Below, in pieces: positions 2,972 to 47,991 of a DNA stretch of 64,000 nt (position 1 is the first letter of the stretch; each line of letters starts with the position of its first letter). The translations under genes were made by a program, and so were the position numbers. The stretch is from positions 1,696,001-1,760,000 of the forward strand of contig CBDCRP010000003.1 of assembly GCA_965221165.1 (NCBI GenBank), read 5' to 3'. Source of the stretch: a bacterium. Lineage in GTDB: Bacteria > UBA8248. Under the pieces are notes generated by a model, which ran no database searches, had not been told where the DNA came from, and worked only from the letters and a program-made list of their open reading frames with translations.

Positions 2972-3104
2972 CCTGCGTTGGAGTCGACCGGCCAGGCGCC
3001 CTCGTGGCGCCCGGGAGTATCCACTTACCGCTGCTTCCTTCCGGACCTGACGGGGTTCGCGGGCTCCCGCCGCACGAGACCCAACCGGCCGAATCCATCG
3101 CAGG
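2972..3104 (-). ncRNA. ffs: Signal recognition particle RNA (4.5S)
   Basis: Minus strand carries CCGTCAGGTCCGGAAGGAAGCAGCGG (helix 8) inside a long hairpin; canonical position upstream of dnaX; ends approximate. Confidence 0.93.
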
Positions 3105-3275
3105 CTCTCAGGGAAATCCTACCCCGTAGGCAGGCCTTTGGGAAGCGGGGGCGTCTGCATTTTCGGCATGGCGAAGTGGCGCGCCGGGGGGAAGCGGATA
3201 ACCCTTCATGTAACACGGCGTTAGGGGGAACCTCCTCCGCGCGGCCGGCAACCAGCGAGGTTCCTTGTCCTGGAA

Positions 3276-3707
3276 TAGGGACGGACCTGTGTGTCCGCCC
3301 GCCTTTGTTTTTGATCGTCATTCCGGCAGTCCCTCCCGCATTGGTCGGGGTAGGACCCGTAGGGGACGGCCCCAAGGAGTCGGTTCCGACCGAAGAGGGA
3401 GGAACCGCCACCTACACCCCGAATGACGACCGTAGTAGGGACAATCCCCTGTGGTTGCCCTTCGTCAGGACAGGCGCGGGAATCGGACAGGCACGGGGGC
3501 TTGTGGGGCAGCCCCGAGGAGGGCAGCCACTACGAAACCATTATGCTCCCGTAGGGGCGGACCTGTGTGTCCGCCCGTCTTTGTTTTTGATCGTCATTCC
3601 GGTGCATGCTGGTGGCAACCGCAGGTTGACCAGGCGGACGGGAAACGCATCGTCAAACCCGACCGAAGAGGGAGAGTTTGTGGATTCCGGCATCCGCCGG
3701 AATGACG
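3276..3707. repeat. Cluster of REP-like palindromes (GTAG- and CGTC-tagged) including a 51-bp direct repeat
   Basis: TAGGG(A/G)CGGACCTGTGTGTCCGCCC...GTCATTCCGG at 3276-3326 and 3552-3602 (2 mismatches); GTAGGGACAATCCCCTGTGGTTGCCCT; GGATTCCGGCATCCGCCGGAATGACG. Confidence 0.85.
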
Positions 3708-3913
3708 TTGGTGGGACCGCTCATGGGTCGGGGATACAAAAAGCCGGGACGATGCAGCGCTAAAGTAGTTATCGGTAAAATTTCTCCGGCGGGCTGCGGA
3801 TGTCGCCATTTCGCCCGCAATGGGGTTACAATGGATTTTCAAATACCCGATCGCGCGAAGCCCTTGGCGCGGGTATCTTTCTTCGCGCCAAATGCGGAAA
3901 GGCAACCCGAAGC

Positions 3914-5983: not shown

Positions 5984-6205
5984 ATTCGCGTTTCCTCCCG
6001 ATCAGGCGCGGGGACGGGAATTTCCCCCGCCCGCCGCATCGAATGCTCCATGGATTGACGAGACATCTGTTTAGCAGGCTTGCCGGAATTCCACAATCAA
6101 ACCCTTAGTTTTCGGTTCCGGGAAACTATACTTGAGCGCGCGTTTGCCGTATCCTGCACTTATCAGCGGGAATCATACGGACGACATATTCATAAGGAGA
6201 AATTC

Positions 6206-6766
6206 ATGGAAGGCCCGATTGATGGACACGGCACGTCCACGGTTCCGGGTGAGCGCGTCATCGACAAGCCCGAACACCCCGCCGGGGGGCTTTATACGGA
6301 CAACACCGTCCACACCGAGATGCACGAGGGCGCTCTTCAGCTCAAGCGCGGCAGGGCGGGAGATTTCGAGATATTCTGCGACGAGGGCGCCGGGATCGGC
6401 GGCACGGCCCGATACCCCACCCCGATGGCCTATCTCGCGATGGCGACGGGGTTCTGACTGCTCACCCAGGTGTCGCGGTACGCGCACATGATGAAAATGG
6501 AAATCAAGGGGGCGAGCGTCTCGGTCCGGTTCAAAAAGCTGCTGGGCGGCTCCGTTTTGAAGGGAACCGTGTTCAACAAGTGGGAGAGCGTGGACACGCA
6601 CCTGAAAGTCGAATCGGACGAGCCTGCGGACAAGCTCGCGCATCTCATCAAAAACGCCAAGAACGGCTGTTTCGCCGAGGGCTTGATCACCGAGCCGGTG
6701 CCTTTGAACTCCACCGTGGAGGTGAACGGCGAGCCGTTCAGAATCGAAGGGGTAACGGCGGACTGA
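6206..6766 (+). CDS. OsmC-family peroxiredoxin-like selenoprotein (UGA at 6455-6457 read as Sec)
   Basis: RBS AAGGAGA and ATG 6206; the two listed ORFs are in one frame joined by TGA: PTPMAYLAMATGF-U-LLTQVSRY...NGCFAE; hairpin GTGTCGCG-GTA-CGCGCAC at 6470-6487. Confidence 0.85.
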
Positions 6767-6788
6767 CCCGCCATATATGGAGCCATCA

Positions 6789-7238
6789 ATGGAATACTTC
6801 GACGCGTCGCCCGACATATCATTCGGCTCACAGCCCGAGCCTGCGGATCTCGAATCCCTCGCAGATAGAGGGGTCAGGACCATCATCAACACGCGCTTTC
6901 CCGAGGAAGACCAGGGCGAGTTGCCGCCCGCGCGCGCGAAGGCCGAGGCCGAGGCGCTGGGGATGCGCTACGTGAACATCCCCGTCTCGCCGGTGGAGTT
7001 CAGTCCCGATTCGCTCGCCGAGGTGAGCCGCGCGCTCGATGAGTCCAAGGCCCACGGGCCTACGTTCGTGCACTGAAAGGCCACTGGGCGGGCCGGGATT
7101 TGCTCGCTGAACCATCTGGCGGATGAGAACGCGTGGAGCGCGGGGGAGATGGAGGGGGCCGCCGACGCCACGGGCTTCGACTGGCGCGAAGCGCCGCTGG
7201 CGCCCAAATACCGCGAATTCTTCGCGCAGAGGGGATGA
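6789..7238 (+). CDS. DUF442/Blh-like rhodanese-phosphatase-fold sulfurtransferase, selenoprotein (UGA at 7074-7076)
   Basis: SQPEPADL...GVRTIINTRFPEE...YVNIPV...PTFVH-U-KATGR matches the HCx4R loop; frame stays open 53 codons to TGA 7236-7238. Confidence 0.82.
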
Positions 7239-7546
7239 CCCCCCCTACCCCCCGAAAAGGGCGATTTTGGGCCGATCTGTTTTCTATCTATTTGATTATA
7301 CTTGACTTACCGCCCATTTAATTTTCAGATATTTTCGCCTAATTTCGCCTATTTTCAGATATTTTCACTTATTCGCGCCCCCGCTCCGCGCATGACGCTC
7401 CGCTTCACCACCATACACGCCCGCGCCCCGAGGCCGGTGACGGGATTTGCGGCCAAATGCGTGGTTCAATTCCGAGCGATGAGGGAGGGATTGTTCCGAC
7501 CAATACGAGAGGCATTCCTGAGCGGTCGTGGCTCCCTTCATCTGCG

Positions 7547-8028: not shown

Positions 8029-10452
8029 TCAGGCGTCCTCCCCCCACACCCTTGCGACCGCCGCCTGAATCTTTTTCTCGAAGCGATCGATGAGTTTGCG
8101 GTTGGATTCGACCATGGCCTGCTCGGCTTCTATCTCGGCGACGATGTCCTGTTGGGTTTCAAGGGGTGGAAGGGGAATTAGTATTCTCTCCAAATTTCCT
8201 TTCGTGATGTGGACAAGACCAACACCACCATGAAGATTTTCTTCAACCTCCGCAACTGCTCTATTTAGTACGTAGTGCAAATACATTTTCATTGTCTGAC
8301 TTTGATTGAATTCGATCTTGAAAATGTGCTGGTTCAATATGGCCTTGCCGCCACTCCAAATATGCGCTCCAAAAGAGGTGCCTCGTGAGCCAGACCATGA
8401 GAACAAAAGCTGCCCTCGGCTAATAATGTACTGATCTTTCACTTTCCCAGTGTAATAATTAAACTCACTGCTAGGGGAATTTAGGTTTTGAATTCGTACA
8501 ATCGGGAGGCCACCACTATCGGCACGCTCCCAGTCCTGTGGCTTAAAAGCACGCCCGTTGACAAGGTTGCAAATATCACCAATCGCCACCATCGGCCATT
8601 CAGGATCGACCGCGATATGCGGGCGATAATTGTCGACCACCGCGCGCGCTCCGTCGATGACCTTCTGGTAGCCCTCGATTTCGGCGACGATCTCCTTTTG
8701 AATATCGAGAGGAGGGAGGGGGATTTTGTGCGTTTGGTAAACTTCCGTCCTGTTAAGGCCCGGAATACCCGCACCGCCCCTCAATTCTTGAAGTTTTAGG
8801 CTCTTCAAGACCCAATAGAGATAAACGAGCTCAGATTCACTGGGGTTGGTTTGCCTAACGTAATACGTCGTATCTATAGGAAAGCAATTTTGCTGAATAA
8901 ATGTCACTTCACCTGCCGATCCTTTTCTTCCGACGACAATTGCAGGCCCCTCGATGAGGAAATCGTTATGGTATCCAGTGATACCGTTCGAGCCAACGAC
9001 AGGAAAGGAACCCTCGACACGCTTTGCTTTTGGTAGGCTCGCACCATATTCAAGTGTGCAGACATCTTCAAATTGGCATAACGGAAACTTGGATCTAGCT
9101 TGAGCTGCCTCTCGATACCTCTCCCCACTCAGATTGTACTCCCCGTTCTCCGCAATCTTCTCCTTCTCGACGATCAGCCCGAGCGTCGGCTCGAAATCAT
9201 CCAGTGGTTCCCCCGCCCGCAGCCGCCGCAGGTATTCGATTATCTCCGTCTTAGCTTGAGGCAGGTTGTTCTTATCAATCTCCCGCCGCTGCGCTCCCAG
9301 GTCGTAGCCGTCGTTCTCGACTTTGAAGAAGGCGACGTGGTTCGCCCTCCTCGCCAGCGGCTTATCCAGAATGAGGATGGAGGTCTTGACACCCGAATAG
9401 GGCTGGAACACGCCCGGAGGCAAAGAGACCACGGCGACGAGATATTCTTCCACCAGCATCTTGCGAAGCTGCTTATAAGCGTTCTGGCTCTGGAAGATGA
9501 TTCCCTCGGGCACGATGATGCCCGCGCGGCCCCCCGTCGTCAGGTGCCCGGCCATGTAGTCCACGAAGAGCACCTCGCTGCGCCTGGATTGCACCGAGAA
9601 GCGGTTGTGCGGGCGGATGCCGCCTTTGGGGGACATGAACGGCGGGTTCGCCAGAATAACGTCCGCGAATTCGTTCCAGTTATCTTCGCTCGTGAGCGTG
9701 TCGTACTCGGAAATATGCGGGTCGGTGAACCCGTGCAGGTACATGTTCGCCAGAGAGAGCCGCACCATGTCGGGCGAAATGTCGTAGCCCTTGAGATTGG
9801 CGGCCAGCCGTGTCTTCTCGTCCGGCGTCAGGCTGCTCCCGCCGTTTTCATCCGTGTTGGCCTTTAGAACGTGCTTGTAGGCGGAAATCAGAAAGCCTGC
9901 GGTGCCGCAGGCGGGGTCGAGCAGCCTCTCGTCTTTTTTGGGGTCTACTATCCCGACGATGAAGTCGATGATGTGGCGTGGGGTGCGGAACTGCCCGGCG
10001 TCGCCCTGGGAGCCGAGCACGGAGAGCAGGTACTCGAAGGCGTCGCCCAGCCGTTCCGAGTGATCGTAAGTAAACTCGTCGATAATTTTGAGAAAGGCGC
10101 GCAGGGTTTCGGGGTCTCGGTAGGGCAGATAGGCGTTCTTGAAGATGTCGCGAAACAGCGGCGGAACCCCCGGGTTCTCCGGCATCCGGGTGATGGCCTC
10201 GGCGTAGAGGTTCAGGGTCTCATGGCCGCCCAGGCCCGCGCGGGTCAGCTTCGCCCATCCGTAGCGGGCGAAATCACCGGCGAAAAAGCTGCGCTTCCCG
10301 CCCAACTCCTCGCTTTCGGCGTCGATGTCGTCCATGAACTTGTAGATCAAGGCGATGGTTATCTGCTCGACCTGGCTTTTGGGGTCGGGCACCTTGCCCA
10401 CGAGAATGTCGCGGGCGGTGTCGATGCGGCGTTTTGTGTCGGCGTCGAGCAT
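8029..10452 (-). CDS. Type I RM N6-adenine methyltransferase fused to specificity subunit (HsdM-HsdS, two TRDs)
   Basis: GQFRTP, DPACGTAGFL, NPPF, then two TRDs each closed by IPLPPLxxQxxIVAEIE. Confidence 0.92.
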   Translation of the reverse strand: MLDADTKRRIDTARDILVGKVPDPKSQVEQITIALIYKFMDDIDAESEELGGKRSFFAGDFARYGWAKLTRAGLGGHETLNLYAEAITRMPENPGVPPLFRDIFKNAYLPYRDPETLRAFLKIIDEFTYDHSERLGDAFEYLLSVLGSQGDAGQFRTPRHIIDFIVGIVDPKKDERLLDPACGTAGFLISAYKHVLKANTDENGGSSLTPDEKTRLAANLKGYDISPDMVRLSLANMYLHGFTDPHISEYDTLTSEDNWNEFADVILANPPFMSPKGGIRPHNRFSVQSRRSEVLFVDYMAGHLTTGGRAGIIVPEGIIFQSQNAYKQLRKMLVEEYLVAVVSLPPGVFQPYSGVKTSILILDKPLARRANHVAFFKVENDGYDLGAQRREIDKNNLPQAKTEIIEYLRRLRAGEPLDDFEPTLGLIVEKEKIAENGEYNLSGERYREAAQARSKFPLCQFEDVCTLEYGASLPKAKRVEGSFPVVGSNGITGYHNDFLIEGPAIVVGRKGSAGEVTFIQQNCFPIDTTYYVRQTNPSESELVYLYWVLKSLKLQELRGGAGIPGLNRTEVYQTHKIPLPPLDIQKEIVAEIEGYQKVIDGARAVVDNYRPHIAVDPEWPMVAIGDICNLVNGRAFKPQDWERADSGGLPIVRIQNLNSPSSEFNYYTGKVKDQYIISRGQLLFSWSGSRGTSFGAHIWSGGKAILNQHIFKIEFNQSQTMKMYLHYVLNRAVAEVEENLHGGVGLVHITKGNLERILIPLPPLETQQDIVAEIEAEQAMVESNRKLIDRFEKKIQAAVARVWGEDA

Positions 10453-10463
10453 GGGGTTCCTCT

Positions 10464-13016
10464 CTAGGGGTACGGCGCGAACCGGTTCAGAGAAACGTAA
10501 TCCTTGACGTAGTTCGGAATCAGAGCGCGGTATTTCTCCGGCACGTTGCTAAAGGCGGCGAAAGAGAGGGCCGGTTCCGTGGCGAGGGCGGGGTATCGCC
10601 TCTCGTCGATGATGGCGCGAATCCTGTCGCTCGTGGCATACGCCTCGAAGTAGCTCCGCATGGCCGGGATGGCGGCGGCGTCCTCGGGTTCATGATCAAC
10701 GAGGAACTTGGCGAATTCCTCCTCCAGCAGGTCGCGCTTCGACTTGAAATCGGGAATGAAGCCGAAGACTTTCTCCAGAATCTCGCGGAGGGTGAGGCGT
10801 CTATCGGCATCAGCCGCCTTACGCAGCTTGTCGAGGTTGTAATAATCCTCTGGCTTGTCGAACACCTCGCGGTTCACGTGGTCGATCACGCGCTCCCACT
10901 CACCGGCCTGGACGGCGGCAGCGATGTTCGCGTCCTCCCGCACGGTATCGCGAAACCTGTCGAAGAGCATTCGGTCGACCTTCATGCCCCGATACCCGAT
11001 GGGCACTTCCTTGACGCCCGCGAGGATGTCCTCGCCTGTGTGCTCGTAAACGCCTCGTATCTGAGTAGGCCCGTCGCCCTCACCGGGATCACCCCCGCCG
11101 CGCTTGCGGATCTGCGGCAGCTTCAACACTTGCTCGTAGTCGTACTCGGTCTCGAAGTATTCGTAGTTGCCGAAGAAATCGAAGAGCCTGAACGCTGTTT
11201 TTTGCGTCTCCTCCGACTCGGGAATATCTTGTAAAAGCCTCTCGTCGGTGATCTGCTGCCTGAAATCGTGCATACGCGTGCCGCGTCCTTTGATCTGCAC
11301 GAAATCCGTGGGCGAGAAGATGGGGCGGAACAGGCCGACGTTCAAGACGTCGGTGCAGTCGTAACCCGTCGTCATCATCCCCACCGTCACGCAAACTCGG
11401 GCCTTGCTCGTCCGGTAGCCGTCCAGAAAATTGGCCGAGCCCAGTAGGTTGTTGTTCGCGAAGTTGACGGTGAACCGCTGGGCGTCTGCGATTTGGGAGG
11501 TCACCTGCACGGCGAAGTCGGACTGATATTTGCCCGGAAACATCCTGTCGGCTATCTCGTTCATTATCTGTGCGAGCTTGGCCGCGTGGTTCTGGCTCAC
11601 GGCGAAGACGATCCCCTTCCCGACCTCCCCGCTCACGGGATCGCGCAGGGCGTTCTCCAGAAAAGTCTTACAAAAAAGCTGGTTGGTGGCTTCGGAGTAG
11701 AAGCATTTTTCGAACTCGCGCTTTTTGTAGATTTCCTCCCACTCCTCGCCCTCATCGTCGGTGAAAGCGGCGACGAAGCCCTCATCCGAAAGAAGCTGCG
11801 TGGTTATGTCCGTGCGGGCGTCCACCACGGTCGCGTTGATCAGGTATCCGTCCCTCACGCCGTCGAGCAGCGAATAATGAAAGGTGGGTTGATCTATCTC
11901 GCAGCCGAATGTGTGGTACGTGTCTCGTTGCAGGCGGCGCTCCACCGCGCGCGGGTCGCGAATGGTCGCGTCTACCTCATCGAAGTTTTTGAGGTAAGCG
12001 CGGGGCGTGGCAGTGAGACCCAGCTTGCAGCCCACGAAGAAATCGAACACGCCGCGGGCGTTGCCGCTTATCGAGCGGTGCGCTTCGTCTGAGATCACGA
12101 GGTCGAAATCCGTCGGCGAAAAAAGTCGCTCGTATTTGTCGTTGAACTGGAAGGATTGCACGGTGGTAACGACGATTTCGGCGCGCCGCCAGTCGTCGGG
12201 GTTGTGCTTGTAGACGACGGTGTCGTAGTCATTCGAAAGCAAATCTTTGAAGGCCTTGAACGCCTGCTCTTCGAGTTCGAGCCTGTCCACCAAGAAGAGC
12301 ACCCGGCGGGCGTTGCCCGTGCGCAGGAACAGTTTGATGACGGCGGCGGCGGTGAGCGTCTTGCCCGTGCCCGTGGCCATCTCGAACAAGAAGCGATCGC
12401 CACCCTCACGCACCGCTTTTTGCAGCGCGTGGATTGCCCGCAGTTGATAAGGGCGCAGAAACCGCAGCTTGTTGGCCCGAATGTATTCTTCGCGCTCGTT
12501 CTCGTTTCTCCAGGCGGCCTCTTTGGCGTAGTTCGGCTGCTGGGTGAGGACGATGTAATCCTCGCCGACTTGCTCGTCGACCAGACGCCCAAGATCCGGG
12601 GAAAACTCCCGGCGTGCGGAGGCTGAGTCCGGCGTCGGGAACGCGGTGATGGGATGGGGGTTGCCGTGCTCCAGGTCCCAGAAGTGGTGCTGGTTGCCGT
12701 TCGAGAGGATGACGAAACGGCAGTTCTGCGAGCGGGCGTATGTGCGGGCCTGCTCTTTTCCTACGAGCGGATTTATCCTCTCGGACTTCGCCTCCAGGAC
12801 GATGAACGGGAATCCCGCCTCATCGAGCAGCAGGAAGTCGATGAAGCCCCTGGAGGTTTGCTCGAAGTCATCACCCAGGCCGTCCAGGTCCGCCGTCTTG
12901 ATGGTGACGCTCGGCTCCAGGCGGATGTTGGCGGGCTTTCCGTCTTCGGAGAAAAAGCGCCAGCCGGCCTCTTCGAGCAGCTTGTTTATCTTGACGCGAG
13001 CAGCAGCCTCGCTCAT
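10464..13016 (-). CDS. hsdR: Type I restriction endonuclease subunit R
   Basis: N-terminal nuclease (IDF...LEAK...QAR.YA), Walker A MATGTGKT, DEAH, LTATP, TTGYD, QIKGRGTR; start set to ATG 13016. Confidence 0.92.
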   Translation of the reverse strand: MSEAAARVKINKLLEEAGWRFFSEDGKPANIRLEPSVTIKTADLDGLGDDFEQTSRGFIDFLLLDEAGFPFIVLEAKSERINPLVGKEQARTYARSQNCRFVILSNGNQHHFWDLEHGNPHPITAFPTPDSASARREFSPDLGRLVDEQVGEDYIVLTQQPNYAKEAAWRNENEREEYIRANKLRFLRPYQLRAIHALQKAVREGGDRFLFEMATGTGKTLTAAAVIKLFLRTGNARRVLFLVDRLELEEQAFKAFKDLLSNDYDTVVYKHNPDDWRRAEIVVTTVQSFQFNDKYERLFSPTDFDLVISDEAHRSISGNARGVFDFFVGCKLGLTATPRAYLKNFDEVDATIRDPRAVERRLQRDTYHTFGCEIDQPTFHYSLLDGVRDGYLINATVVDARTDITTQLLSDEGFVAAFTDDEGEEWEEIYKKREFEKCFYSEATNQLFCKTFLENALRDPVSGEVGKGIVFAVSQNHAAKLAQIMNEIADRMFPGKYQSDFAVQVTSQIADAQRFTVNFANNNLLGSANFLDGYRTSKARVCVTVGMMTTGYDCTDVLNVGLFRPIFSPTDFVQIKGRGTRMHDFRQQITDERLLQDIPESEETQKTAFRLFDFFGNYEYFETEYDYEQVLKLPQIRKRGGGDPGEGDGPTQIRGVYEHTGEDILAGVKEVPIGYRGMKVDRMLFDRFRDTVREDANIAAAVQAGEWERVIDHVNREVFDKPEDYYNLDKLRKAADADRRLTLREILEKVFGFIPDFKSKRDLLEEEFAKFLVDHEPEDAAAIPAMRSYFEAYATSDRIRAIIDERRYPALATEPALSFAAFSNVPEKYRALIPNYVKDYVSLNRFAPYP

Positions 13017-13348
13017 GGGGTCCTCTTCCTCGTGTCGAAATATCCACCTTTTGGATACCTTTCTTTTAGAACTTTTCTCCGAGGAGAGCAATCTCACCCG
13101 GCTTTTCCGGCGGAAAACTAACCCCGCCCCCCATTCATGTCAAAACATCAATTTCCCGTGAATAGTCCCCATAAAACACCCTTCATTCACGCTGAACCGC
13201 CTAAATAACGTGAATGGATTTTCCGCTATGAGGAGTACGCGCGGTCGCAATTGTCTTTCTTCTTGACACGCATCATGCGTCTCGCTAGGTTTGCTTGGCA
13301 CTCCACACATCTGTCCTGTGTTTGTCGCCGCAAGTCCAGGGGGGGACC

Positions 13349-31716: not shown

Positions 31717-32369
31717 ATGTCCAGAGTCCCGTTGCTCGGCCGAGAAGGCGCGGAGGGAGAGATCGCGCGCACCTTCGGCATCCTGGGTAACTTCCAGCGC
31801 AGGCAGGTCAATTCCACCCGGGCGACGGCGCACTCCCCGTTTCTCGCCCGCATTTTCTATCCCCTCGTCCAGACCCTGATGCGCGAGGGGCTCGGCACCG
31901 TCCTCTCCTCCAGGATAAAAGAAATCGCCGTCATCAAAACCAGCCGGATGAACGGGTGTGACTACTGACTCGCCCACAACACCGCTCTCGGCCGGGTGCT
32001 GGGAATCACGGATGACCACGTCGCCGCCATCGGATCGGACGACTACATGGATTCGCCGCTCCTCAGTCTCCAGGAGAAAGCGACCGTCCTGTGGCCGAAC
32101 ACGTGACGCGCAACACCGCCAAATCAAGAGACGACGTGGCCGGGGAGGTGCAAAGGCATTTCACGGACGCGGAGTTCGTCGAGCTCACCTTCGTCATCAG
32201 CTACTTCAACATGCGAAACCGCTACCACGACTCCCTGAAGCTGCCGAACGATGAGGCGGAAATCGTCGAGGACGTGGGCCCCCTCCGGCCCGACCCGGAA
32301 AAGCTTAAAAAATTCTTGCAGGAAATTCTCGATAACTGGCCGGACGCCTTCCCGCAGCCTAACGAATGA
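31717..32369 (+). CDS. AhpD/carboxymuconolactone-decarboxylase-like selenoprotein (CxxU; UGA 31966-31968) with a 1-nt frameshift near 32093
   Basis: KEIAVIKTSRMNGCDY-U-LAHN; downstream LW|AEHVT...FTDAEFVEL...NMRNR needs one extra G at TGGCC. Confidence 0.78.
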
Positions 32370-37076: not shown

Positions 37077-37892
37077 TTAATCTGTCACCCAGGCGGGTCC
37101 GCCGTCGGACTGACCCGTGAGCCTGGCCAGCGTCTCGGCCACCTTTCTTTCACATTCGAGAAATTCCACCGATAGCGCATCGCGCGGGCGCGGCAGGTCG
37201 ATCTTGATCTCCTCCGCTATCCGGCCGGGACGAGGAGACATCAAAAGCACCCTGTCGGAGAGATAGGCCGCCTCGCGAACGCTATGGGTCACGAAGAGCA
37301 CGGTTTTGTGGGTTTCCATCCATACCTGCACGAGAAGCTGCTGAAGGCTCGAGCGGGTCTGGGCGTCGAGAGCGCCGAAGGGCTCATCCATGAGCATCAC
37401 CTCGGGGTCGAAAGCCAGCGCGCGCGCGATGCCCACCCGCTGCTTCATTCCGCCAGAGAGCCGGTAGGGATAGATGTTCTTGAAACCCTGGAGCTCCACC
37501 AGCCCCAGAAGGCGCTCGACGACGGGGTCGCGCTCGGTTTTCGGGATTCCTTTCATGCGCATGCCGAAGCGGACGTTTCCCGAGACCGTCAGCCAGGGGA
37601 AAACGGCGAACTCCTGGAACACGACTCCTCGGTCGAAACCCGTGCCGTCGATGTGGTGATCGTCCAAGACGACGTCGCCCGAGGTTTTCTCATACAGGCC
37701 CGCCACTATCATCAACAGCGTGCTCTTGCCGCATCCACTCGGCCCGATCAGGGTAACGAACTCACCCGCGCGGACGTCGAAGTTCACCCCTTCGAGAGCG
37801 GTGATGTCCGTGGTCCTCCCCCATCCCTCGTCGATGGTGAAGATTTTTCCCAAATCCTTGACCTGCAGTTTTACAGGGCCCTGAATCGCCAA
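37077..37892 (-). CDS. ABC transporter ATP-binding protein (TauB/SsuB/NitT type)
   Basis: GPSGCGKST, LSGGMKQR, LMDEPFGALD. Confidence 0.95.
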   Translation of the reverse strand: MAIQGPVKLQVKDLGKIFTIDEGWGRTTDITALEGVNFDVRAGEFVTLIGPSGCGKSTLLMIVAGLYEKTSGDVVLDDHHIDGTGFDRGVVFQEFAVFPWLTVSGNVRFGMRMKGIPKTERDPVVERLLGLVELQGFKNIYPYRLSGGMKQRVGIARALAFDPEVMLMDEPFGALDAQTRSSLQQLLVQVWMETHKTVLFVTHSVREAAYLSDRVLLMSPRPGRIAEEIKIDLPRPRDALSVEFLECERKVAETLARLTGQSDGGPAWVTD

Positions 37893-37912
37893 GACACTCT
37901 CCTATCTGCGCG

Positions 37913-38773
37913 TTATTCGCGCAGCGTTCCCCAACGCTGAACCGTGGTCAGCTCGATGCTCCGCAAGAAAACACGCTCTACGATCACGCCCAGGATGCCG
38001 ACGACCACCACGCCCCCGTACATCATATCCGCCGCCAGGAAATCCCGGGCCGCGAAAATCCGAAAACCCAATCCCGCCTCGAGAGCGACTATCATCTCGC
38101 CGGTCACGACGATGCGCCACGCGCGGCTGAACGCAATCCGGTAGCCCGCGATGAGGCTCGGCATCGCGCCCGGAACCATCACCTGAAAGAAAAGCGTCAT
38201 GCCCTTTGCGCCCATGGCCCTGCCCGCGCGGATGAGGGACGCATCCACGGTCTTCACCCCCGTCCAGGCGCTCACCATCACGGTGATCATTCCCTCGAAC
38301 CAGAGCACGGAGATGAGGGTGAAATCACTCAGTCCGAACCACAGGATGACGATGGGAAACAGCGCGAGACCCGGCACGGCCAGAAAAAAGTACATCGGCG
38401 GCGCGAGAGCCCGCTCCACCGTCTTGTTCATTCCCATCACCAGCCCGACCAGGGTTCCCGAAACGATGGCGAGGGCCGCCCCGACCAGGAGCCGGTAGAG
38501 TGAAACGTAGATGTCGAGCCAGAGGATGCCGGACTTCGCCTGCTTCACCATCGTGAACCAGATGACTTCCAGGGGAGGAAAAAGGACGGGATGAAGCGTT
38601 CCCGAATGCGCGAGCAACTCCCAGAAGATGAGCAATCCGATGAGAGGCGCAGTCATCTGAAAGAGCGCTTTACCGGAGTTTCGGAAAACCACGTTCCAGT
38701 TCGGAGGCCCGAGTTTTCTCTCTGTCCCCGGCGGCGCTCCGGGCTGTTCTTGCGCTTTATCGGCCGTCGCCAC
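37913..38773 (-). CDS. ABC transporter permease (TauC/SsuC type)
   Basis: Multi-TM, RAGRAMGA EAA loop, AW...GEM...GLG. Confidence 0.92.
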   Translation of the reverse strand: MATADKAQEQPGAPPGTERKLGPPNWNVVFRNSGKALFQMTAPLIGLLIFWELLAHSGTLHPVLFPPLEVIWFTMVKQAKSGILWLDIYVSLYRLLVGAALAIVSGTLVGLVMGMNKTVERALAPPMYFFLAVPGLALFPIVILWFGLSDFTLISVLWFEGMITVMVSAWTGVKTVDASLIRAGRAMGAKGMTLFFQVMVPGAMPSLIAGYRIAFSRAWRIVVTGEMIVALEAGLGFRIFAARDFLAADMMYGGVVVVGILGVIVERVFLRSIELTTVQRWGTLRE

Positions 38774-38787
38774 GAAAATTTCCTTTC

Positions 38788-40137
38788 TCAGCTTCCGAGA
38801 GCCGTTATTCGTCCGCTTCCAAGAGCTTCTATTTGTCCGGGCTCGGGCAGGTTCGCGTAGGGGTCCTGCGCGATGGCGGAGGCGTTACGCTCCCGCGTGC
38901 ACAGATCCAGCGCTGCGAGGGCGAATATTTTTGTCGTGTCCACCAGCGCGTCGACGTGGATGTGCTCGCCCATGTCGGCGTTCCAGCCGTAACCCGCCGT
39001 CGCCGTTCGGCCCGCCAATCCGTAAGTGATGGTCTGAATGCCGTAGCGGTTCATGTGGGCGGCGTCGAGATAGGAAGTCTTCACGATGATGTTGGGCTTC
39101 TCCCCCATGATTTGCTCGTGCGCCCGGATCATCGCCTTGGAAGGCAGCGAATCGACGGGAATTCCGGAGGGTGGATGCGAGGAGAACACCTCGACCTTGG
39201 CCCCGATGTCGGGCTGCTCTTCGTTCACCTGCGCGATCATCGCCTTGAATTCCGCCTCCACGTCCTGGACCCTTTGTCCCGGAACCAGGCGAACGTCCAC
39301 GTAAAGACGGCACTCGATGGGCGAGCGCGCACAGCGGTAAGGCCACCCGCCCTCGATCGCAGCCATGTTCACGTGGGGGCGTTCCCCCAGGAATTCATTG
39401 CGTCCCCGGTACTCGGGAATCCATTTCCGAATGGCCGCCTGCACCCTTTCCATCCGCTCGATAGCGCTTGCCGTATAGTCGCCATAGCACGTATGGCCCA
39501 TCAGCCCCCGTGTCGTGAGCTTGAACCACACCGTGCCCCCGTGCCAGGGCGCGACCTGCATGCCGGTCGGCTCGCCGAGAATGCAAAAATCCGTCAGATA
39601 ACCGTGCGAGATGAGGTGCCGGGTGCCGACGCCGTAGCCGTCATAAAGCACGTCCTGGTATTGGTCGATCCGGTTTTTTTCAATCTCTCCCACGACGGAG
39701 GCCAGGACGATGTCGCCCTTGAGTTCCACGCCCGCGTCCGCGAGGGCCTTCGCCGCGCCTAAGTAGGAGACGTCGGCGCTTTTCATGTTGGCCGCGCCGT
39801 TTCCGAAAATCCAGTCCCCTTCGCGAATCGCCTTGTTCTTGTAACCCGGCTGGGTGAGTTCGGGCTCCTCGCCGGAATAGGAGGTATCCAGATGGCCGTT
39901 GAACATCAGGGAATAACCGCCGCCGGCGCCCGGCGAGATGCCGACCGCGTTGTAGCGGCCCTCGGCCACCGTTTGCAGATGCGCCTCGAAGCCGGCCTCC
40001 TCGTACTTCGCGTGCATGTAGCGGGCCGCCTCTTCCTCCGATCCGGTGGGGCTCGGTATATCCACGAGTTCCATGGTGGTTTTCACGAGGAACTCCTCAT
40101 CCACCGCGTCGACGACTTTCTTTTGAAGCTCATCCAT
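38788..40137 (-). CDS. M20A (ArgE/DapE-like) amidohydrolase
   Basis: IPSPTGSE, FNGHLDT, GAANMK, GEPT, GEHI. Confidence 0.88.
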   Translation of the reverse strand: MDELQKKVVDAVDEEFLVKTTMELVDIPSPTGSEEEAARYMHAKYEEAGFEAHLQTVAEGRYNAVGISPGAGGGYSLMFNGHLDTSYSGEEPELTQPGYKNKAIREGDWIFGNGAANMKSADVSYLGAAKALADAGVELKGDIVLASVVGEIEKNRIDQYQDVLYDGYGVGTRHLISHGYLTDFCILGEPTGMQVAPWHGGTVWFKLTTRGLMGHTCYGDYTASAIERMERVQAAIRKWIPEYRGRNEFLGERPHVNMAAIEGGWPYRCARSPIECRLYVDVRLVPGQRVQDVEAEFKAMIAQVNEEQPDIGAKVEVFSSHPPSGIPVDSLPSKAMIRAHEQIMGEKPNIIVKTSYLDAAHMNRYGIQTITYGLAGRTATAGYGWNADMGEHIHVDALVDTTKIFALAALDLCTRERNASAIAQDPYANLPEPGQIEALGSGRITALGS

Positions 40138-40257
40138 GATTCTCGATTCTCCTCGACTCACCCGCGATGCGCGCGCAAAACTTCTTTCGCCCCTCCGGAG
40201 GGATGAATCGTCCTTCCGGAGGGGCAGGGGGAAAGGTGTTCCGGGTTATCTCTCGCC

Positions 40258-41253
40258 TTACTTCATCAAATTAAAGTAGGCGTTCTCCACCAACTGGGTG
40301 TCGATGTGGGCGGTGACGTCGATGCGCTTGGGCAGCTTGCCCTTCTTCACGCTGACTTCCACTCCGTCCTGCACTTCCTTGATGTCCCTGTGCGTGATCA
40401 TCGCGCGATCCCAGCGCATGAACCTGTAGAGATTGCTCTTCACCTTCTTGAGGTCGAAGTCGAAGCCCTGGCTCTTCCAGAACTCCTGCACTATCTTCGT
40501 GGACTCATCCCGGTTGCGGTTCAGGAAACGCATAGCCCGAACGTGGGCGTTCATGAAACGCTGCGCGCCGTCCGGGTTTTCCTTCTTGATGTAGGACCAC
40601 GAACTCGTCAGGAAGACGGGGGAAGTGTAGCCCAGCAGATCGTCATACTCCTTCGGCCCCATGACCATCCGGCCCAGGCCCTTGTCGACGATAATCGAAC
40701 CCCAGGGCTCCCAGGTCAGTCCCGCATCCAGCGCGCCGGTCTCGAAGGCGGCGGGCAGCGAACCGGTTTTCGTGTTGCGGATCTTGAAGTCCTTGTCCGA
40801 CAAGCCGATACGCGAGAGATACGTCATCCAGGTGGCCCAGGTGCCCGTACCCATCTGCGCGCCCACGGTCTTGCCCTTGAGGTCCATCACCGATTTCGTG
40901 GTCTTGTCCTTCACGGGGACGAGCACCATGTTCTGGTTCCCGTAGCGGTTCAGCGCGATGCCCACGACGTCCAGTCCGCGCGCCGCGATTTGGCCCACGC
41001 GGGAGCCGCGCGTGCTGATGATGTCGGCGGTGCCGCCGATGAGAGCGTCAATCAGCGCGCGGGGACTCGTGACCCTGCGCTTCACGTTGACCCCCTCGGC
41101 TTTGTAATACCCCTTCTTCTCCGCGATGTAGGGGATGGCCGCGTGCGAGGTGTTGTCGTGAATCAAGTTGATGACGCCTTTCGCCGCCAGCGCATTCGTG
41201 GTCATTCCGAATACAGCGATAGTTGCAATCAAAACCAGGCCGAACTTTTTCAT
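40258..41253 (-). CDS. ABC substrate-binding protein (SsuA/NMT1 type)
   Basis: Signal peptide, IAEKKGYY..EG, DLKGKTVG, TWEP. Confidence 0.9.
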   Translation of the reverse strand: MKKFGLVLIATIAVFGMTTNALAAKGVINLIHDNTSHAAIPYIAEKKGYYKAEGVNVKRRVTSPRALIDALIGGTADIISTRGSRVGQIAARGLDVVGIALNRYGNQNMVLVPVKDKTTKSVMDLKGKTVGAQMGTGTWATWMTYLSRIGLSDKDFKIRNTKTGSLPAAFETGALDAGLTWEPWGSIIVDKGLGRMVMGPKEYDDLLGYTSPVFLTSSWSYIKKENPDGAQRFMNAHVRAMRFLNRNRDESTKIVQEFWKSQGFDFDLKKVKSNLYRFMRWDRAMITHRDIKEVQDGVEVSVKKGKLPKRIDVTAHIDTQLVENAYFNLMK

Positions 41254-41335
41254 CTTACTCTCCTCCACGTTTGAGAACGCATTGCCTCTACGTCAACCAG
41301 AGATAAAACGACCAAAACCGACCAAGAGCTCCTTT

Positions 41336-47896: not shown

Positions 47897-47991
<95 letters not shown>

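Follow-up and report, generated by a model that had tools for sequence, protein, structure and literature searches.

Within the window (the whole 64-kb stretch of DNA that was analyzed), a gene of the DUF442/BLH_phosphatase type is interrupted by an in-frame UGA at the codon of its catalytic residue and is preceded by a gene for an OsmC-related selenoprotein. The features of this locus, together with the two noncoding RNA genes assigned in the window, are the following.

2987-3086, minus strand: small bacterial SRP RNA (Rfam)
6206..6766, plus strand: OsmC-related selenoprotein gene, 186 aa, with its Sec-UGA at 6455-6457 (G-F-U-L-L-T-Q) and a second conserved Cys (G-C-F-A-E)
6470..6487, plus strand: hairpin after the OsmC UGA, GUG.CGCG / loop GUA / CGCGCAC (centroid structure)
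6779..6782, plus strand: ribosome-binding site GGAG, 6 nt 5' of the ATG at 6789
6789..7238, plus strand: predicted Sec-containing DUF442/BLH_phosphatase-type coding sequence, 149 aa with U96; final stop TGA at 7236-7238
7074..7076, plus strand: in-frame UGA, putative Sec codon U96, at the catalytic Cys position of the H-C-x4-R loop
7087..7108, plus strand: putative bSECIS hairpin, 7-bp stem 7087-7093/7102-7108 with an 8-nt loop at 7094-7101, CGGGAUUU
47899-47991, minus strand: tRNA-Ser(GGA)

Translated with table 11, the open reading frame from the ATG at 6789 ends in ..H-G-P-T-F-V-H at the TGA at 7074-7076, just as the original prediction had it: a frame that closes after VH, at the spot of the catalytic Cys. 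When this TGA is read as U, the sequence becomes H95-U96-K-A-T-G-R101 and continues A-G-I-C-S-L; the predicted readthrough through H-U-KATGR, with 53 sense codons after the UGA up to the stop TGA at 7236-7238, is present in the sequence, for a total of 149 aa. The GGAG motif is equally spaced from the ATG of the DUF442 gene in seven related loci (L001-L007), and since the frame of an alternative ATG at 6777 is lost in relatives, 6789 is taken as the start of the gene. An open stretch of 53 codons is by itself weak evidence of readthrough. What raises readthrough above chance is that the matches to PF04273 and NF040641 span the TGA, that Cys forms of the family align downstream of it, and that the TGA is kept in 8/8 loci. 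A split gene with a separate C-terminal protein was excluded, in that no in-frame start codon lies between the TGA and Met121, the first such start.

A genome scan with one genome per species returned nine loci (L001-L009). All eight close loci (L001-L008) have a TGA at codon 96 followed by a conserved downstream frame, and pairwise dN/dS among close loci was 0.03-0.46 downstream of the TGA, with similar values upstream. One of the eight, L008 (6001-6465), is a Sec-type DUF442 paralog of 43% identity that shares a chromosome with L004; in the ninth, L009 (28% identity), the codon-96 position is occupied by Cys. The original prediction had named a simple nonsense mutation, without a TGA in any other homolog and without conservation after it, as the outcome that would overturn it; the TGA in 8/8 close loci and the dN/dS range downstream run against that outcome.

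The same column recurs in protein collections. A search of 5.8 billion protein clusters yielded 66 relatives of the DUF442 protein, 59 of which end in x[FY][VI]H, immediately ahead of the TGA column: 58 have a length of exactly 95 aa (the window's own protein among them) and one has 100 aa, with identities from 100% down to 45%. The sole close full-length relative among the 66, P0036 (162 aa, 49% identity), reads V-F-V-H-C-K-A-I-G-R-A-G-V-C-S. An exhaustive search of 1.84 billion representatives gave 1559 relatives at E <= 0.001, the best 150 of which are mostly Cys-bearing and 140-200 aa long, along with further truncated forms (P0073, P0075, and P0162). One 53-aa sequence, P0078, consists of the C-terminal piece alone and is 69% identical to residues 98-149. 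For the distant truncated forms P0056, P0060, P0062, P0073, and P0162, the TGA is deduced from the ends of the predicted proteins. The TGA/Cys pairs that the original prediction had proposed to look for at this column were found, with TGA in the 8 loci and Cys in P0036 and 22 other Cys forms.

Two additional records have irregular structures. P0047 (112 aa) looks like a frameshifted copy of a DUF442 relative. P0167 (94 aa) has the N-terminal part joined directly to the post-TGA C-terminal part, so that at least one record contains the post-TGA frame as predicted coding sequence.

With respect to family membership, the protein matched Pfam PF04273 (BLH_phosphatase, formerly DUF442) with 52 bits against a cut-off of 26.1 (residues 11-106 of P0001). 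Its score with the NCBIfam model TIGR01244 family sulfur transferase was below threshold (50.9 bits against 85.85), as was that with the Blh model NF040641 (51.5 bits against 625; residues 8-135 on profile positions 5-130 of 423), and the dioxygenase domain is absent from the protein. Judged by these scores under both cut-offs, the protein is a divergent branch, related to TIGR01244 but outside it. Alignment A4, with 30 sequences (7 Sec forms and 23 Cys forms), has as its invariant columns E40, G58, P65, H95, C/U96, and R101, and U96 aligns with a Cys that is invariant in the 23 Cys forms. The loop Gly of U-K-A-T-G-R lies at +4, the usual form C-x-x-G-x-R having its Gly at +3. The classical signature loop of Cys-based PTP/DSP enzymes is C-x5-R; U-K-A-T-G-R departs from it in having four residues between nucleophile and Arg.

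Structural comparisons gave the same assignment. A PDB search with a single sequence returned no match, and one with the A4 profile recovered 2f46 (5e-19) and 3gxg (7e-17), both of them solved DUF442 structures, with true phosphatases far weaker. The AlphaFold2 model of the readthrough protein, built with alignment input, had a pLDDT of 95.1 and a pTM of 0.90; in it, strand 92-95 leads through the loop into helix 100-114, and the post-UGA residues make up the loop and three helices. Foldseek placed 3gxg/3gxh at ranks 1-3 and 2f46 at rank 4 for this model (TM 0.72-0.79). The PTP-like fold and the H-C-x4-R loop by which PF04273 is recognized are both present, with DUF442 structures as the nearest ones, and the original assignment to the DUF442/BLH_phosphatase family with an H-C-x4-R loop holds by Pfam, PDB profile search, and fold. 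A further Cys, Cys105 (U+9, window 7101-7103), is found in all 9 Sec forms read from DNA, in the fragment P0078, and in the Cys form P0036; none of the other 22 Cys forms in A4 has a Cys in this column, and 4 of them have one 1-3 positions away. From this distribution, Cys105 may be a resolving Cys.

The hairpin that had been predicted 10 nt past the UGA, GGCGGGC/GCTCGCT, was located at 7087-7108. It consists of GGCGGGC (7087-7093), the loop CGGGATTT (7094-7101), and GCTCGCT (7102-7108), with a 10-nt spacer from the UGA, a UGA-to-loop distance of 17 nt, and an MFE of -11.4 kcal/mol. The bSECIS model, as quoted from PMC13188914, has a loop of 3-9 nt, a stem of 4-16 bp, a G in the first two loop positions, a UGA-to-loop distance of 16-37 nt, and an MFE <= -7.5 kcal/mol; the hairpin at 7087-7108 lies within every one of these quoted limits. 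Its energy was unexceptional relative to shuffled sequences (z = 0.29, with 119/200 shuffles equally or more stable), and an Rfam search of the whole window returned the SRP RNA and one tRNA only, with no SECIS-type family. RNAalifold on 9 sequences found no compensatory change in any of the 15 predicted pairs, as these sequences hardly differ across the hairpin; the sole stem change is G.U to A-U in L008. No other 23-nt stretch of the gene varies as little across the 9 sequences as positions 7086-7108, which have 1 variable column where 13-16 are typical, and third codon positions vary at 119/144 across the gene. Where the encoded residue is invariant, more than one synonymous codon is used at 2/8 sites inside the hairpin versus 34/40 outside (Fisher one-sided p = 0.0016); one of the two varying hairpin codons preserves its pair, and the second falls immediately beyond the stem. 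The low variability of this stretch and the frozen synonymous sites together argue for a constraint on the hairpin at the RNA level beyond that on the protein.

The gene immediately upstream provides a second case of an in-frame TGA. Its readthrough reached 164.2 bits on NF041052 (OsmC_like_Se; cut-off 95), across the whole profile; its U aligns with the Cys of five/five full-length Cys forms, and the second Cys is invariant. The OsmC TGA and the following ~45 nt are identical in L001-L007, and the hairpin, whose loop lies 20 nt from the UGA, has an invariant sequence in 8/8. Gene callers would split this gene into ORFs at 6080-6457 and 6470-6766. A curated selenoprotein of the OsmC-like type, in which a TGA is likewise conserved, is thus encoded next to the DUF442 gene, and for this reason the host organism very probably decodes Sec.

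A gap of 22 nt separates the OsmC-like and DUF442 genes, and their linkage is kept in the window and in L001-L007; the two are very probably cotranscribed and may function together. The gene order in L001-L006 is dnaX, SRP RNA, two ODP-type beta-lactamase-fold genes, a divergent glyoxalase/methylmalonyl-CoA-epimerase-like gene, OsmC(Sec), and DUF442(Sec), where the comparison covered the protein genes and the SRP RNA was placed in the window only; L007 has the conserved order except for a dnaX match. In L008, the U and C105 are kept along with a nearly identical hairpin, there is no OsmC neighbor, and the flanking genes (transglutaminase-like, TPP enzyme, and dihydroxy-acid dehydratase) offer no functional lead. 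No gene for sulfide:quinone reductase, persulfide dioxygenase, or rhodanese was found near the DUF442(Sec) gene; the local neighbors are of a peroxide/stress type, and sulfur oxidation is not specifically supported by them. Upstream, an ORF at 2978-3763 (plus strand) overlaps the SRP RNA and is matched by relatives only in its first 42-91 residues; the start of this ORF may accordingly be spurious in its 5' portion.

Downstream of the DUF442 gene, short direct repeats (units like ttttcagatattttc) occur in an AT-rich stretch at ~7280-7370, between it and a type I restriction-modification pair at 8029-13097 (minus strand) that comprises a fused methylase/specificity gene and an EcoAI-type R subunit. 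This pair had no tblastn match in the flanks of L001-L007. In the window, 6 kb separate the DUF442 gene from a formate-tetrahydrofolate ligase gene downstream of it, compared with 3.6 kb in L003; the restriction-modification genes may be an insertion specific to the strain. An ABC transporter at 37077-41268 (minus strand; ATPase, permease, and binding protein) had SaoA, SaoP, and SaoX, models of a selenoprotein-associated system, as its best or near-best NCBIfam matches, all of them well under their cut-offs, and may be of an ordinary sulfonate/nitrate type.

A crude scan of the window for pairs of ORFs separated by a TGA and followed by a hairpin gave 16 candidates, the DUF442 gene itself included. 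Eight were scanned with NCBIfam, of which only a CMD/AhpD-like one gave a selenoprotein-type match; the remaining 7 were discarded on visual inspection, because they fall within annotated genes, out of frame or on the opposite strand. The CMD/AhpD-like gene (31717-32366, plus strand) has an in-frame TGA at 31966-31968 in a C-x-x-U motif and matched Pfam CMD with 27.3 bits against a cut-off of 23, while its NCBIfam scores stay below threshold. From ~32088 onward, the family's C-terminal part is found in a different frame, pointing to a frameshift near 32085-32092 that could be a genuine lesion or an artifact of assembly. This gene may be a third Sec gene of the window.

Taken as a whole, the evidence makes it highly likely that 6789-7238 encodes a genuine selenoprotein with Sec inserted at U96. 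Conservation alone would show that the codon is translated and says nothing about the residue inserted, and selA, selB, selD, and tRNA-Sec (the last searched for with ARAGORN) were not found within the 64-kb window, so that decoding as a standard amino acid (Trp, Cys, or Gly, by near-cognate or reassigned decoding) has to be weighed. We regard it as very improbable. General reassignment of the stop codon was rejected, in that TGA is an ordinary stop in the window, ending 4 other well-supported genes and absent inside 14 others; moreover, the site is that of the catalytic Cys, the classic position of Sec/Cys exchange, a hairpin that fits the SECIS model and has frozen synonymous sites lies 3' of the UGA, and the adjacent gene is a curated selenoprotein gene whose own TGA column is Cys in 5/5 full-length Cys forms.

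Even less credible is a lesion, whether a plain nonsense mutation or assembly error that makes the gene a pseudogene, or a 95-residue N-terminal fragment as the true product. Gene callers and the source annotation do give a 95-aa protein, and the apparent frameshift near 32088 means that the window may hold at least one indel-type lesion elsewhere; against this stand the identical position of the TGA in 8/8 loci and 59/66 clusters down to 45% identity and the purifying selection downstream of it, and a fragment of 95 aa would miss the catalytic loop and three helices of the fold.

A quick maximum-likelihood tree was built from the N-terminal 95 residues of 16 of the 61 truncated forms, chosen for their spread, and of 25 Cys forms trimmed to end ahead of the catalytic Cys. 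In this tree, 15/16 Sec forms group with the Cys form P0036 (SH-aLRT 87), P0162 lies nearby but outside the supported grouping, and only 2/38 inner branches are strongly supported. The topology would accommodate a single change from Cys to Sec and one later reversion. There are two paralogous Sec lineages, represented by the window and by L008. Two of the truncated clusters have a source name, "Nitrospinae bacterium" in one case and "Nitrospinaceae bacterium" in the other. The BSepDB paper places three UBA8248 organisms (Nitrospinota/Nitrospinaceae/Nitrospinae) among the ten richest bacterial selenoproteomes, with 48-54 genes.

In the decoding that we propose, the UGA at 7074-7076 would be read as Sec, with SelB and Sec-tRNA(Sec) recruited by the stem-loop at 7087-7108 within the coding sequence. 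The product would be a 149-residue single-domain DUF442 (PF04273) protein of PTP/DSP fold, in which Sec96 takes the place of the essential nucleophilic Cys in the H-C-x4-R anion-binding loop. As for its chemistry, the selenolate could accept sulfane sulfur from a persulfide or thiosulfate, an enzyme Se-S intermediate would form in the positively charged pocket (R101), and the sulfur would then be handed to an acceptor in a rhodanese-type double displacement. OsmC(Sec) and DUF442(Sec) would constitute a two-selenoprotein cassette kept in a group of uncultured bacteria, with Nitrospinae or Nitrospinaceae as the labels of its database relatives.

The proposal of sulfur transfer draws on characterized DUF442 domains and on rhodanese/DUF442 fusions among the nearest Cys relatives. 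According to PMC5823870, the DUF442 domain of Xylella Blh uses thiosulfate as the donor of sulfane sulfur, with cyanide or glutathione as the acceptor. For a Cupriavidus SQR, PMC6441731 describes a DUF442 domain in which only the conserved Cys94 is essential; this residue carries a reactive persulfide, and Arg99 belongs to the positively charged pocket around it. The spacing of Cys94 from Arg99 equals that of U96 from R101 here. The nearest Cys relatives outside the Sec group include P0072, with a metallo-beta-lactamase fold, 2 rhodanese domains, and DUF442, and P0074, with rhodanese and DUF442. We give sulfur transfer, by analogy with these systems, roughly an even chance of being the chemistry of the DUF442(Sec) protein; the shifted loop Gly, Cys105, and the stress-type neighbors weaken the proposal.

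The shifted Gly and Cys105 leave room for a Sec/Cys redox couple, the main functional rival, in which the protein is likewise a selenoprotein but acts as a redox enzyme or partner through a Sec96-Cys105 selenenylsulfide. Such a couple might reduce an oxyanion bound in the P-loop, as in phosphatase-scaffold arsenate reductases, or recycle the neighboring Sec-OsmC peroxidase. The distribution of Cys105 (9/9 DNA-read Sec forms, P0078, and P0036, versus none of the 22 other Cys forms) speaks for it, as do the tight and conserved link to the Sec-OsmC gene, 22 nt away in the window and linked in L001-L007, and the lack of sulfur-oxidation genes next door. The paralog at L008, however, keeps U and C105 without an OsmC neighbor, and we know of no member of the DUF442 fold family that acts as a Sec/Cys redox couple; we consider this reading unlikely, with clearly lower odds than sulfur transfer. 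Somewhat more speculative still is a first PTP-fold selenoenzyme in a dedicated relay with Sec-OsmC, whose Sec96/Cys105 pair would regenerate the Sec peroxidase or handle mixed Se-S intermediates; if true, this would be a chemistry described for neither the OsmC nor the DUF442 family.

Compared with known systems, the protein is like the DUF442/PF04273 domains (the N-terminal domain of Xylella Blh, Cupriavidus pinatubonensis SQR, 2F46, and 3GXG) in its fold, its H-C-x4-R loop, and a nucleophile 5 residues before the Arg. Unlike the Cys-form DUF442 proteins, it has a predicted Sec nucleophile, a stand-alone single domain, a shifted loop Gly, and an extra Cys105, and its gene is linked to an OsmC-like selenoprotein gene rather than to a persulfide dioxygenase. 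With the Sec rhodanese-like forms 1-5 of Table 1 in PMC13188914, it shares a sulfurtransferase-type loop, the replacement of Cys by Sec, and a prediction based on Sec/Cys pairs; the rhodanese-like proteins, in contrast, have a PF00581 fold and unrelated sequence, and a PF00581 match was not found in the DUF442(Sec) protein. The OsmC-like family (NF041052/PF02566, UxxT) is known from Sec/Cys pairs as a selenoprotein family, and is a different family that supplies the neighbor and probable operon partner. The PTP/DSP phosphatases (TpbA 4R0S, DUSP23 2IMG, and PTPMT1 3RGO) resemble the protein in overall fold and in having the nucleophile at the start of the P-loop, whereas its loop is one residue shorter (C-x4-R) and identity is 13-22%.

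The Sec form of this family appears to have gone unrecorded. Table 1 of PMC13188914 (May 2026) contains 119 prokaryotic selenoprotein families/subfamilies, including OsmC-like and five rhodanese-like forms, and that table has no entry for PF04273, TIGR01244, DUF442, Blh, or phosphatase. A full-text literature search that paired selenoprotein with DUF442 or sulfur transferase domain, and selenocysteine with TIGR01244, returned no report. The deep-Sep paper and 4 supplements to it do not mention the family; in the accessible text of the GOS paper, DUF442 and COG3453 are absent and mentions of "phosphatase" refer to PP2C fusions or belong to the reference list; and NCBIfam release 20 has no selenoprotein model that matches the DUF442(Sec) protein. 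The suspicion voiced in the original prediction, that Sec forms of DUF442 are little known, agrees with the 119-family table of PMC13188914 and with the literature search. Within the literature and catalogs covered, the locus is a case of standard bacterial Sec recoding in a family uncataloged as a selenoprotein family. It is apparently the first selenoprotein on a phosphatase-like fold; the table in PMC13188914 lists none of this fold.

The consequences of these findings concern both annotation and biochemistry. New bacterial selenoprotein families are still regularly reported, and selenoprotein genes are systematically misannotated as truncated; in the present case, 59/66 clusters break off at the catalytic residue, and of the two truncated clusters with a source name, one is entered as "sulfur transferase domain-containing protein" with 95 aa. 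Recognition of the Sec DUF442 family, which is widespread in its clade and misannotated throughout, would correct such truncated database records, add a family to the prokaryotic selenoproteome, and extend the use of Sec to a phosphatase-like fold. The DUF442(Sec) protein and P0036 would serve as a natural Sec/Cys pair for testing what selenium contributes to persulfide-type transfer, and the conserved tandem with Sec-OsmC would offer a small, testable two-selenoprotein module.
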